NCBI GenBank assembly: GCA_963717935.1
Contig: CAVQXP010000003.1
Span: 32,001 to 96,000, forward strand
DNA: 64,000 bases
DNA from: Candidatus Eiseniibacteriota bacterium
Lineage (GTDB): Bacteria; Eisenbacteria; RBG-16-71-46
Direction of reading: 5' to 3'
Within the stretch, counting starts at the first letter, position 1; each line of letters opens with the position of its first letter. Position numbers: made by a program. Shown one piece after another: positions 23,301 through 26,300 of the stretch.

Positions 23301-26300
23301 GGGACGCGGGAGCAGTTTCAGGATCTACCTGCCTCGCGTCGAGGGTCAAGCCGAGGCGCGGCCGCCGAAGCTGGCTCCCCACCAGGCCCGTGGCGACGAG
23401 ACCATCGTGTTGGTCGAGGATGATCTGCTCGTGAAGAACCTGGTGCACGACGTATTGCGCAAGAACGGTTACCAGGTGATGGAGTTCGTCAATGGCCGTG
23501 AGGCGCTGGCCCGGGTGAAGAGCCACAGTGGACTCATCCACCTGCTCGTCACCGACGTGGTGATGCCGGGCATGAGCGGCATCGAGCTGGCTCGCCAGCT
23601 CGCGCCGGGCCGCCCGGAGATGCGCGTCCTCTTCTTCTCCGGGTACACCGATGACCTGGTCGAGCGCCAGGGCGCGCTGCAGCCCGGGCGTGACTTCCTG
23701 CAGAAGCCGTTCACCCCGGACACGCTGCTGCGCAGAGTGCGCGCGCTGCTCGATGCGCCGGCTCTCGTCGCGGACGAGGGCGCCGCCCCGCCCGGCTCGC
23801 GCGACGACTGAGCCTCGCGCCCGTCGCCGCCGCCTTCTTCCGGCCGGGGCCCCCACGGCCGGGAGGGGGCGTTCTCTTCCCCCTCATGTTGTGGCAGAGT
23901 GCGCGGCATGACGATGCCCGACCCCCAGCGCGCGCGGACTCTCTTCGTCACGGCCTTCGGGCGGGCTCCCGTGCCGCCCGGCCCGTGGCGCCACCTGGTC
24001 GTGGTGGACGTGCCGCGCCAGCGGCTCGTGCTGCTCGACCGGCAGGGTGAAGGACTCGCCGAGTACCGGGTGTCCACCGCGGCCGCGGGGATCGGCGGCG
24101 AGGCGGGCTCGCTCCGGACACCTCCCGGTCTCCACCGCATCCACGCCCGGATCGGCGCGGGCCAGCCCGCGGGCGCGGTCTTCGCGAGCCGCGAGCCGAC
24201 CGGCGAGATCTGGCGCGGCGAACTGCGCGGCGACGATCTCATCCTCTCGCGCGTGATCACGCTCGACGGCCTCGAGGCGGGTGTGAACCGCGGGCCGGGG
24301 CGCGATTCGCTCGAGCGCTTCATCTACCTGCACGGCACGAATCACGAGGCCGCGCTGGGCGAGCCCGCCTCGCATGGCTGCGTCCGGCTGGGCAACGAGG
24401 ACGTGATCGAGTTGTTCGACCGCGTGGCCGAGGGCGACCTGGTGGCGGTGCTGGGCGAGGTGCCCGTCCCCGACTGGCGGCGCGGGCGCTTCCACTACGC
24501 CGGGCTCGGCGGCAGCGGCATGAGCGCGCTCGCCCAGTTCCAGGTCATGCGCGGCGGTGTTGCGAGCGGCAGCGACCGGGCCTTCGACCGTGGCGAGCGC
24601 TCCGGCGCTCGCGCGCAGCTCGAGCGCCTGGGCATCCGCGTCACGTCCCAGGACGGCAGCGGGCTCGAAGGTGCGGGAGCCCTCGTGGTCTCGACCGCGG
24701 TCGAGCGCGAGGTGCCGGACTATGCGACGGCCCGCCGGCTGGGCGTGCCCGTCGTGCACCGCTCGGAGCTGCTTGCGCGCTTCGTCGCCGACCATCGCGC
24801 CATCGCGGTCACCGGCACCAGCGGCAAGTCCACCGTGGTGGCCATGATCTTCGAGATCCTGCGCGGCGTTGGGCGCGACCCCTCGGTCATCACCGGCGGC
24901 GACCTGGTGATGCTCCAGCGGCAGGGCCTGTGGGGGAACGCCTGGGCCGGGCGCTCGGACCTGCTCGTGGTGGAGGCCGACGAGAGCGACGGTTCGGTCG
25001 TGCGTTACGAACCCGCGGTGGGCGTGGTCCTGAACCTGCAGCGCGACCACCGGGAGATGGACGAGGTGGCCGCGATGTTCCGCGCGTTCCGCGGGCGCGC
25101 CCGCGAAGCGTTCGTGGTGGGGGAGGGCGCGAACCTCGCGGTGCTCGCGGTGGGCGCGGTCGTGTTCGGCGTGGGTCCGGCGGCCGGCGTGCGCGGTGTG
25201 GACGTGGCGCTCGATCCGGGCAGTTCCGCTTTCACCGTCGAGGACGTGCGCTTCACGCTCCCCGTGCCCGGGCGCCACAACGTCGAGAACGCGCTGGCCG
25301 CGATCGCCGCCTGCCGCGCGGTGGGCGTGCCGCTCGCGGGGATGGCGGCGCCGCTCGCGCGCTTCCAGGGCGTGGGCCGGCGCTTCCAGTCGCTGGGCAC
25401 GGCGCGCGGCGTCGAGGTCGTGGACGACTTCGCCCACAACCCGGCCAAGATCGCCGCGGCCCTCGCGACCGCCCAGGCACGGGCCGCATCTGGCGGCGGG
25501 CGCGTGCTCGCCGTCTACCAGCCGCACGGCTACGGCCCCACGCGCTTCCTGCGGCGCGATTTCGTCGAGACGTTCGCGGCCGCGCTGCGTCCCGCGGACC
25601 GGCTCTGGATGCTGGAGGTGTTCTACGCCGGCGGGAGCGCCACGCGCGACTTCTCCGCCGCCGACATCGTGGGCGAGATCGCCGCGCGCGGCGTGGCGGC
25701 GGAGTTCGCGGAGTCGCGCGCATGGCTGACCGAGCGCATCGCCGGGGAGGCGCGGGAGGGCGACCTCGTCATCGTGATGGGAGCGCGCGACCCGTCGCTC
25801 ACGCAGTTGGCGCGCGACACGCTGGCGAGGCTGGGGGGCGGGTCGGGCGCCTGACCGGGGCCCCGCGCCGAAGCCGGGACGTGGGTCCGGGCCGCGGCTT
25901 GTCGGGCAGATCAGGGCCTCTGGCCATGGACCCGCCGCTCGGAGCGGCGGGCTATTGCTGGTCGCGCACCAGAGACTCAAATGCGGCCAACCGCTCCGGA
26001 TCCGCCACATTGTTGAAGTAGAAGCATCTGAACATCGCGTAGTCGCGGCGCACGATGGAATCCGGCAGGGAGCCCGCGCGGGCGATGTACCGGTCAAGGG
26101 CGGTGGGAACGTCGGCGAATCGAGCGCCGCGACGGGCCAGCTCGGCCATCAGGGCGGGCTCCCAGCGGAGCACGCAGGCGACCTCGCCGTCGAGGTCGAC
26201 CTCCAGGGGAGAGATGCTGTCCGCCAGGGCGAGCGCCGGCACGACGATCGGATCCAGCCCGAAATTGACCTTCCTCTCGTCGAGCAGGTAGGCGGCCGTG

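Follow-up and report, generated by a model that had tools for sequence, protein, structure and literature searches.

A YkuD domain fused to a MurC-like ligase in Eisenbacteria is a candidate two-step enzyme for the re-use of cell-wall peptides

We found a single gene of a Candidatus Eiseniibacteriota bacterium that joins an ElsL-like YkuD domain to a Mur ligase of a large unnamed MurC-like family, for which we use the working name FAM. The fusion would be a cytoplasmic two-enzyme protein for cell-wall peptide re-use. Probably its YkuD domain is an L,D-carboxypeptidase that trims tetrapeptides to tripeptides, which the predicted ligase activity then joins to UDP-MurNAc. YkuD and FAM are fused or directly adjacent in genomes from Nitrospirota, Fibrobacterota, Syntrophia, Krumholzibacteriia, Elusimicrobiota and Eisenbacteria.

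The gene occupies positions 23908..25854 on the plus strand of the window (the whole 64,000-nucleotide stretch of DNA that was analysed). It starts with an ATG at 23908, its stop codon is included in the end coordinate, and it encodes 648 amino acids in one open frame, exactly as the first-pass annotation had proposed; a search of the own genome returned an identical full-length match. An additional in-frame GTG precedes the ATG, at 23899. Upstream, the frame extends no further than 23812, 32 codons before the ATG and directly 3' of the stop codon of the upstream gene, which encodes a histidine-kinase/response-regulator and whose conservation is limited to the genus. A scan of positions 23600-26200 for promoters and terminators found none.

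An assembly or annotation artefact, or a gene in decay, might produce such a fusion, and there are imperfect copies: three relatives (L022, L023 and L024) have frameshifted or interrupted versions, and five full-length matches in the phylum sample carry a single in-frame stop. However, 18 of 41 related genomes have the fused frame unbroken at almost its whole length, with G012 as a 19th related genome that has the fused form. It is also unbroken in 38 of the 151 genomes of the phylum sample and in further phyla. Moreover, catalytic residues are invariant, the structure model is confident, and the third-position GC of 0.93 is typical for genes of the host genome. These conservation data effectively refute the artefact reading, to which we attach a negligible probability. 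The earlier claim of a genuine fusion is thereby upheld; the spread then given, five genomes of five genera, is far too narrow, since fused or adjacent forms occur in at least six phylum-level groups.

The YkuD domain comprises residues 29-181 (23992..24450, plus strand; PF03734, 9e-22). Its best NCBIfam model is that of ElsL (NF040925), with 128.6 bits over residues 31-181 and model positions 8-158 of 164, compared to 26 bits for the next L,D-transpeptidase model, although the curated ElsL cut-off of 270 is not reached. The AlphaFold2 (AF2) model of the domain (pLDDT 87.7) has the LDT fold, and it matches generic L,D-transpeptidases with a TM score of only about 0.5; a search by sequence for a solved ElsL structure found none. 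The active-site motif HGTNHEAALGEPASHGCVR (residues 142-160; 24331..24387, plus strand) contains the catalytic residues H142...S155-H156-G157-C158-V-R160. At H142, S155, G157 and C158 there is no variation among 37 fused homologues, nor in a set of 19 fused or split ones; at H156, at least 90% of the 37 have the histidine, and four of the 19 differ. YkuD enzymes form an acyl-enzyme intermediate that is resolved by water or by an amine and, to our knowledge, the only known substrates of the family are the L,D bonds of peptidoglycan stem peptides. In the fusion protein Cys158 would be the nucleophile and His142 its partner.

The question of an export signal was judged from the frame opening and from Kyte-Doolittle hydropathy. 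With so short a frame ahead of the ATG, a signal peptide does not fit. Within residues 1-70, the highest score of any 15-residue segment is 1.03, versus 2.95 for the other YkuD protein of the genome, which is exported (Scaffold + PG_binding_1 + YkuD). A Pfam search of the fusion protein found no domain beyond YkuD and the Mur ligase domains, and hence no PG-binding domain. This supports a cytoplasmic location of the predicted protein. Thus, three features ascribed to the YkuD part in the first-pass annotation, an intact H..SHGC.R site, a likeness to ElsL and the lack of a signal peptide or membrane anchor, are all found.

ElsL (LdtK) of Acinetobacter baumannii is a cytoplasmic YkuD-family L,D-carboxypeptidase with, as far as the available text of PMC8649774 describes it, the same minimal domain and H...SHGC motif, and it likewise has no signal peptide, membrane anchor or PG-binding domain. 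Unlike ElsL, the YkuD part described here scores far under the cut-off of the ElsL model and comes either fused to a ligase or from a gene immediately upstream of one. The same text reports ElsL from Proteobacteria and Verrucomicrobia, whereas the present domain occurs in phyla outside these. According to that text, the orthologue screen removed proteins of more than 200 amino acids, so the fusions could not have appeared in it.

A short linker (residues 182-194; 24451..24489, plus strand) leads into the ligase; in two-gene relatives this is where the first gene gives way to the second. Its three Pfam domains, all on the plus strand, were recovered at the residues first assigned to them. The N-terminal, UDP-MurNAc-binding domain (Mur_ligase, residues 195-296; 24490..24795) has the MurC-type loop GLGGSGMS (24502-24525). 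The middle, ATP domain (Mur_ligase_M, residues 301-469; 24808..25314) has the P-loop GTSGKST (24814-24834) and the sequence EADESDGS without the Mpl insert (24973-24996). The C-terminal domain, which would receive the incoming amino acid or peptide, is Mur_ligase_C (residues 491-627; 25378..25788). Three family marks lie in this part of the gene. These are DDFAHNP (25423..25443; DDY[GA]HHP in MurC, DDFAHHP in Mpl), QPHGYGPTR (25519..25545) and GARDPSL (25780..25800; GAGD/N in MurC).

Is this ligase a MurC or, as the expression "ElsL-Mpl fusion" in the first-pass annotation implied, an Mpl? MurC (TIGR01082) is the best profile, with 286.5 bits, but the score stays under the cut-off of 335.1; in five other genomes, canonical MurC reaches 361-566 bits. 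The Mpl profile (TIGR01081; cut-off 388.7) matches in two incomplete segments, with 112.7 bits. The Mpl-specific motifs GI(C/G)GTFM and (S/T)AFFDKRSK, taken from the available text of PMC3060825, are both seen in the E. coli and Yersinia Mpl rows of our alignment, whereas the ligase has neither and reads GLGGSGMS and EADESD-GS without insert. Taken together with a tree position outside the MurC+Mpl clade (see below), the sequence indicates that the ligase is neither MurC nor Mpl, and the name of an ElsL-Mpl fusion has to be dropped. The claim that it is paralogous to the MurC of the same genome holds: a MurC-like gene on contig 2, found among other Mur ligase matches, is 40% identical to residues 191-647. 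The figure of 58% given for the MurC of the dcw cluster was not reproduced as such; the identity between this gene and E. coli MurC is 46.7%.

The closest resemblance is to MurC (PDB 1p3d), in sequence and in the three-domain fold, and the ligase shares with it the UDP loop and EADESD. The AF2 model (pLDDT 90.4) matches closed, ligand-bound MurC (1p3d_B) with a TMt of 0.89 and an rmsd of 2.2, compared to a weaker TMt of 0.68 for Mpl (3hn7). The P-loop, EADESD, DH, RRF and DD..H motifs are invariant in homologues of the ligase, and from motifs and model the ligase part looks active. Unlike MurC, it has GTSGKST instead of GTHGKTT, YAGGT and GARDPSL instead of Y[PA]AGE and GAGD, no DHLDxY segment and a four-residue insertion after QPHG.GPT. 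Moreover, its gene lies outside the dcw cluster and is always a second copy in the genomes checked. In this it resembles Mpl, which is also a three-domain Mur ligase beside canonical MurC. It also shares DDFAH.P with Mpl, where MurC has DDYGHHP, and the proposed reaction, the ligation of L-Ala-gamma-D-Glu-mDAP to UDP-MurNAc, would be the same; in the place of the EPRSNT of Mpl, however, it has QPHGYGPT. This last segment bears on the substrate. In H. influenzae MurC the residues that bind L-alanine are His376, Arg377, Arg380, Tyr346 and His348 (roles from the available text of PMC3060825). In the alignment to 1gqq/1p3d, both histidines are kept in the ligase, and the tyrosine is replaced by phenylalanine, Arg377 by glycine and Arg380 by proline.

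FAM is marked by GTSGKST, DD[FY][AG]HNP, Q[PL]HG[FY].P, [FY]YAGG[ST] and GARDP and by its occurrence as a second copy beside canonical MurC, all of which apply to the ligase of the fusion. A canonical MurC-level gene is also present in 11 of 11 FAM genomes checked. Q[PL]HG[FY] is found in 114 of the 150 best library hits and PHR in none of them, and the arginine and aspartate of GARDPSL are invariant in 27 diverse members. The family is spread over many phyla, mostly as stand-alone proteins, as in Chryseobacterium sp. HSC-36S06 (locus L058). In one survey with the FAM profile, an E-value of 1e-95 also lets canonical MurC pass (330-380 bits), and FAM was counted there at more than 450 bits. The ligase-only matches of family f10 in the phylum sample (305-333 bits), which may be FAM or canonical MurC, were counted neither way. 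In a phylogenetic tree all 30 FAM rows lie outside the MurC+Mpl clade (support 99/98), and the Mpl clade (100/100) contains no FAM row, with the reservation that Mpl is thinly sampled there by four closely related enterobacterial sequences; among the matches listed, a search with E. coli Mpl gave Enterobacterales only, at 82% identity or more. Rooted with MurD, FAM forms a weakly supported grade, and a single clade in 6% of the bootstrap trees. By this analysis FAM lies outside MurC and Mpl; we do not claim that it is monophyletic. The "MurC2" of Frankia (PMC7231273) was considered from its published description.

We then surveyed 80 FAM loci for YkuD. It is fused to the ligase in 12 of them, in eight a YkuD gene lies directly upstream in another frame, and in 58 there is no YkuD within 6 kb. 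Among the Nitrospirota with FAM, 13 of 19 have open frames of fused length. In the split forms L019 and L021, the TTG start codon of the ligase gene overlaps the stop codon of the YkuD gene. Clustering of the open reading frames over the 80 loci revealed no neighbour shared across phyla except YkuD. The Rosetta-stone argument of the first-pass annotation stands for a link between an ElsL-like domain and the new ligase, but not for one between ElsL and Mpl, since the ligase is not Mpl. A docking run of residues 190-648 against residues 1-186 as separate chains gave a score of 0.00, which counts neither for nor against binding, and the pTM of 0.86 of the whole-chain model is at most a weak hint at a fixed arrangement of the two halves. 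A literature search found no paper on the YkuD-Mur ligase fusion or on FAM, in line with the earlier statement that such a fusion has not been described.

The recycling genes of the host genome, which is 93% complete, fit the first description. AnmK, MurQ, a GH3 NagZ-like gene and an AmpG-like permease are present, the latter with 180.6 bits, under its cut-off of 350. No Peptidase_S66 (the family of LdcA) and no Mpl above cut-off were found. Nor did the genome, at this completeness, yield an Amidase_2 (AmpD type), a point that the first-pass annotation does not mention, so there is no candidate for the cytoplasmic release of peptides from MurNAc; peptide import after periplasmic cleavage by Amidase_3 is a possible alternative route. 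LdcA, the classical recycling L,D-carboxypeptidase, catalyses the step that we propose for the YkuD domain, but has an unrelated fold and a serine mechanism. No Peptidase_S66 was found in families f1 and f2 (28 genomes, counting the own one), and within the window's order it occurs in seven of seven genomes that have the ligase alone (about 120 bits; G026 included). This complementarity between YkuD and S66 is imperfect, as S66 occurs beside the fusion in three genomes, G033, G036 and, from Syntrophus, G044. Mpl was found in none of 28 FAM-bearing genomes. In a sample of one phylum, 49 of the 96 genomes that lack FAM have an Mpl-type gene, as against none of the five that carry FAM; this anti-correlation comes from five genomes in the single informative phylum, and the rough value of 0.03 makes it look stronger than it is, as related genomes are not independent.

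From these comparisons we infer both substrate specificities, the order of the two steps and any channelling between them as follows. The YkuD domain, as an L,D-carboxypeptidase, most likely takes the terminal D-Ala off the tetrapeptide L-Ala-gamma-D-Glu-mDAP-D-Ala. The ligase would be ATP-dependent, with the UDP-MurNAc and ATP sites of MurC kept. It has lost the arginines that grip the carboxylate of a single L-alanine and therefore most likely attaches the whole tripeptide to UDP-MurNAc, which is the reaction of Mpl in proteobacteria. The product, UDP-MurNAc-tripeptide, would pass to MurF. Fusion, or overlap of the two genes, would couple trimming to ligation and so limit the formation of UDP-MurNAc-tetrapeptide.

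Several observations count against this two-step reading: the missing Amidase_2, the imperfect complementarity with S66, the 58 loci without a nearby YkuD, and an ElsL score far under its cut-off. It also speaks against it that MurC is the best profile and that the fold is nearer to MurC than to Mpl. The last two would be expected if the protein were an additional ligase for single amino acids, a variant of MurC that attaches L-Ala, Gly, L-Ser or a D-amino acid to UDP-MurNAc, with YkuD acting otherwise on nucleotide precursors. Some FAM members even exceed the murC cut-off (343-352 bits), the FAM gene of Elusimicrobiota follows dapA-asd-dapB, a setting of de novo precursor synthesis, and in the Elusimicrobiales genome G042 the ligase stands alone: S66 and ElsL-like genes are both missing, and hence any recognised L,D-carboxypeptidase, which is a further exception to the complementarity with S66. 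However, the residues for the L-Ala carboxylate are replaced throughout FAM, the canonical MurC is there as well in every genome checked, and a partner from the YkuD family, which is known to act only on peptidoglycan L,D bonds (ElsL assays, available text of PMC8649774), would be left unexplained. We consider a single-amino-acid ligase improbable.

Somewhat less remote, if still unlikely, is a different order or purpose of the two steps. The ligase might attach imported tri-, tetra- or pentapeptides, with YkuD then trimming UDP-MurNAc-tetrapeptide, or YkuD might work as a transpeptidase, exchange the D-amino acid at the end of the peptide and so reshape the precursor pool. A covalent fusion suits both orders, a YkuD acyl-enzyme can be resolved by an amine as well as by water, and tri-, tetra- and pentapeptides are all substrates of E. 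coli Mpl according to the available text of PMC3060825. ElsL, the nearest characterised relative, is in contrast reported, in the text available, to be a selective carboxypeptidase that acts on M4 but not on M5. The results above fit both readings.

Natural Mur-ligase fusions such as MurC-Ddl (NF011171), MurE-MurF (NF008896) and, in the available text of PMC13726279, the MurF'-Alr chimera of Bacteroidota are precedents for coupling consecutive precursor steps. They unite steps of biosynthesis, whereas in the present fusion the partner of the ligase is a trimming domain and thus degradative. As far as we know, peptide recycling by LdcA or ElsL followed by Mpl is established in proteobacteria only. 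According to the available text of a 2026 study on Caulobacter (PMC13046382), species without LdcA and Mpl probably do not recycle tripeptides. The recurrence of the same YkuD-FAM pairing in several phyla suggests a peptide-recycling route that is undescribed for them. We see an even chance that FAM is an unrecognised functional counterpart of Mpl in Nitrospirota, Fibrobacterota, Eisenbacteria, Bacteroidota, Elusimicrobiota, Armatimonadota, Planctomycetota and Syntrophia, with the ElsL-like domain as its dedicated safeguard against the re-use of tetrapeptides; whole-peptide recycling would then be much wider than surveys infer from missing Mpl and LdcA homologues. If FAM is indeed a peptide ligase, this would fill the recycling gap of many phyla, correct a systematic annotation error, because FAM members are named MurC, and give independent genomic support for a tight coupling of tetrapeptide trimming to ligation.

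Translation of the window gives a single open frame of 648 codons at 23908-25854 (+), and the fusion that the first-pass annotation placed here is borne out, together with its Pfam domain boundaries: YkuD at residues 29-181, followed by three Mur ligase domains at residues 195-296, 301-469 and 491-627. The motif HGTNHEAALGEPASHGCVR occupies residues 142-160. An N-terminal signal peptide cannot sit further upstream, since the frame is closed until 23812, just past the stop of a hybrid histidine kinase/response regulator gene, and the earliest candidate starts are GTG at 23899 and ATG at 23908. 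Within the first 70 residues the hydropathy maximum over a 15-residue stretch is 1.03, versus 2.95 in the other YkuD protein of the genome, which is of the exported type (Scaffold, PG_binding_1 and YkuD). The uninterrupted fused frame is found in 18 of 41 relatives, with genome G012 as a 19th by separate locus comparison, and in 38 of the 151 genomes of the phylum sample, where 5 further genomes have one in-frame stop. Genomes G008, G029, G065, G077 and G099 show full-length fusion matches with exactly one in-frame TGA or TAG, which may reflect sequencing errors or genes split without a change of frame. Approximately 3 kb upstream of the fusion gene lies a class A penicillin-binding protein with a UB2H domain (PBP1b type; 18494-20935 (-)), and a 149-aa ORF without a Pfam match and then the kinase gene lie in between. 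Closely downstream are two ORFs of 582 and 576 aa (25952-27700 (-) and 28021-29751 (+)), which have gene-like codon bias and no match in Pfam.

The top NCBIfam model for the YkuD half is the cell-wall-recycling L,D-carboxypeptidase ElsL (128.6 bits, model positions 8-158 of 164), with 26 bits for the L,D-transpeptidase model that ranks next. Since 128.6 bits is far under the ElsL cut-off of 270 bits, the YkuD half is a relative of ElsL and not a member by the rule of the model. No substitution of H142, S155, G157 or C158 occurs in 37 fused homologues or in a further 19, fused or split, from other phyla; H156 varies in 4 of these 19. At TM ~0.5, the fit of the domain's AlphaFold model (pLDDT 87.7) to L,D-transpeptidase structures is only loose, and a sequence search found no structure of ElsL. 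According to the available text of the ElsL survey (PMC8649774), its 788 orthologues come chiefly from Gamma- and Betaproteobacteria and Verrucomicrobia, and proteins longer than 200 aa were left out, so that fusions would be absent from it. In the open-access literature, which excludes subscription journals, we found no account of a YkuD-Mur ligase fusion or of the MurC-like ligase family to which the C-terminal half belongs, and which we term FAM.

The ligase half scores 286.5 bits with the murC model (cut-off 335.1). The first-pass annotation had read the protein as an ElsL-Mpl-type recycling enzyme. This interpretation stands in outline but the name does not, because the ligase, which reaches 112.7 bits with the mpl model against a cut-off of 388.7, represents a new MurC-like family. 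Judged by its sequence, the ligase half belongs with neither MurC nor Mpl, and the protein is a fusion of an ElsL-like domain to this new family. Instead of the Mpl marks GI(C/G)GTFM and (S/T)AFFDKRSK, described in the available text of PMC3060825, it reads MurC-like GLGGSGMS, and EADESDGS without the Mpl insert. The same text lists His376, Arg377, Arg380, Tyr346 and His348 as the residues surrounding the incoming L-alanine in Haemophilus influenzae MurC. In a HMMER alignment to this chain (chain index = residue number + 1), the fusion's ligase retains both histidines but differs at the other three positions (Tyr346 to Phe, Arg377 to Gly, Arg380 to Pro), and thus reads DDFAHNP and QPHGYGPTR where MurC reads DDYGHHP and QPHRYSRTR. 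The model of the whole chain (pLDDT 90.4, pTM 0.86) superposes best on the closed ligand-bound MurC 1p3d_B (TMt 0.89) and more poorly on Mpl 3hn7 (TMt 0.68). Owing to the MurC-like fit and the replaced L-alanine-site residues, the machinery for ATP and UDP-MurNAc looks intact and MurC-like, with an altered pocket for the incoming substrate. That the ligase half is still nearest to MurC in sequence and fold, however, counts against a peptide ligase.

A search of 1.84 billion cluster representatives with the ligase part returned 3,501 matches below 1e-30. The best 150 of these, at 275-653 bits, all exceed the MurC of the own genome (~222 bits). Among them, DD[FY][AGS]HNP is found in 131 and DDFAHSP in 3 (16 lack a clean match), Q[PL]HG[FY] is found in 114 (36 lack a clean match), and none of the motif matches has the MurC forms HHP or PHR. 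Most FAM members stand alone and are 440-490 aa long. The family goes unnamed in NCBIfam, and 3 of 8 members tested exceed the murC cut-off (343-352 bits) and are labelled MurC in their sources. Compared to the canonical MurC of the same genomes, FAM has GTSGKST for GTHGKTT, [FY]YAGGT for Y[PA]AGE and GARDPSL for GAGD, has lost the DHLDxY segment and carries a 4-residue insertion after QPHG.GPT. In a maximum likelihood tree (44 rows, 452 columns, LG+C20+F+G4), MurC (95/89) and Mpl (100/100; represented by four close enterobacterial relatives) group together at 99/98, and none of the 30 FAM rows falls within this clade. As FAM is only a weakly resolved grade when rooted with MurD, we limit the claim to its position outside MurC and Mpl.

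Scanning one genome per species for [VI]xDD[FY]AHNP yielded at least 599 stretches, at least 593 of which encode a relative of the query. Going by record titles, the best 80 of these loci belong to Armatimonadota, Candidatus Eisenbacteria, Fibrobacterota, Krumholzibacteriia, Elusimicrobiota, Bacteroidota (Chitinophagaceae, Chryseobacterium, Bergeyella, Kaistella), Nitrospirota, Planctomycetota and Syntrophia. A canonical MurC accompanies the FAM member in all genomes checked (10 different genomes and the own genome): in five genomes from five phyla MurC scores 361-566 bits and FAM 280-326 bits with the murC model, and all five FAM-bearing genomes of a 101-genome phylum sample, one of them common to both sets, also have MurC. 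At three Bacteroidota loci (e.g., L109:1788-4232 (-)) a nearby 814-aa protein combines a Mur_ligase_M domain with a full alanine racemase, and appears to be the MurF'-Alr chimera already described in the available text of PMC13726279.

A YkuD part is present in 22 of these best 80 loci. In 12 it is fused in one open frame, including 7 Nitrospirota, 1 Fibrobacteraceae, 2 Syntrophaceae and 1 'delta proteobacterium'; in 8 the YkuD gene lies directly upstream in another frame (including Eisenbacteria, Fibrobacterota, Krumholzibacteriia and an Elusimicrobiota single-cell genome); one has a frameshift within the ligase, and in one the YkuD gene is 5.5 kb distant. FAM occurs in 19 genomes of a Nitrospirota sample (n = 101), and in 13 of these 19 the open frame is 642-682 aa long. 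In two split loci of the window's relatives (L019, L021) a TTG ligase start overlaps the YkuD stop codon. In a third (L018:1450-1700, genome G022) the ligase frame has no ATG, GTG or TTG after the preceding stop and ahead of the conserved N-terminus; a CTG occupies the position of the relatives' TTG, and an unusual initiation codon, a frameshift site or an error in assembly may account for this. Fused and split forms occur in two subclades of the tree (100/100 and 100/98), and stand-alone forms are found in the latter as well, indicating that fusion, fission or loss occurred more than once.

In the own genome, which is 93% complete, neither an Mpl above cut-off nor a Peptidase_S66 was found. 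The genome encodes a GH3 protein and an AmpG-like permease (180.6 bits, under its cut-off of 350). Outside the window, at C2:175789-180910 (L134:5810-10910), a MurQ, solute-binding protein, AnmK and SpoIID cluster forms a compact anhydro-MurNAc salvage locus, flanked on both sides by rve integrase genes. No Mpl was found in the 28 FAM-bearing genomes examined. In the 101-genome phylum sample, the only sample in which Mpl-type genes are common, 49 genomes have them (E <= 1e-80; 28 above cut-off) and none of the five FAM-bearing ones does; simple counting gives a chance of ~0.03 for this, although genomes that share ancestry do not count as independent. In the window's order, all 7 genomes with the ligase but without the YkuD part (one, G026, unpublished) carry a Peptidase_S66 gene (~120 bits), and no ElsL-like gene was found in the 5 of them that were searched. 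Peptidase_S66 is absent throughout families f1 and f2 (28 genomes, among them the own one). This complementarity is imperfect, however, which counts against a recycling role: the fusion and S66 occur together in G033, G036 and the Syntrophus genome G044, and the Elusimicrobiales genome G042 has the ligase alone without S66 or an ElsL-like gene. The stand-alone ligase of Elusimicrobiota immediately follows dapA-asd-dapB, for diaminopimelate synthesis (L072, L077, L090, L096 and others; 5-9 loci for each ORF cluster), a context that would suit both de novo synthesis and recycling. Also against a recycling role, no Amidase_2 (AmpD type) was found in the own genome, so the intracellular release of the peptide from MurNAc is missing, unless, as is possible, periplasmic Amidase_3 enzymes and a peptide importer provide free peptides.

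The main argument that the YkuD and ligase activities belong to one pathway is that their coupling is recurrent. We consider recycling the most likely function, and rather probable: the YkuD half would trim recycled stem peptides, which the FAM ligase half would then rejoin to UDP-MurNAc.
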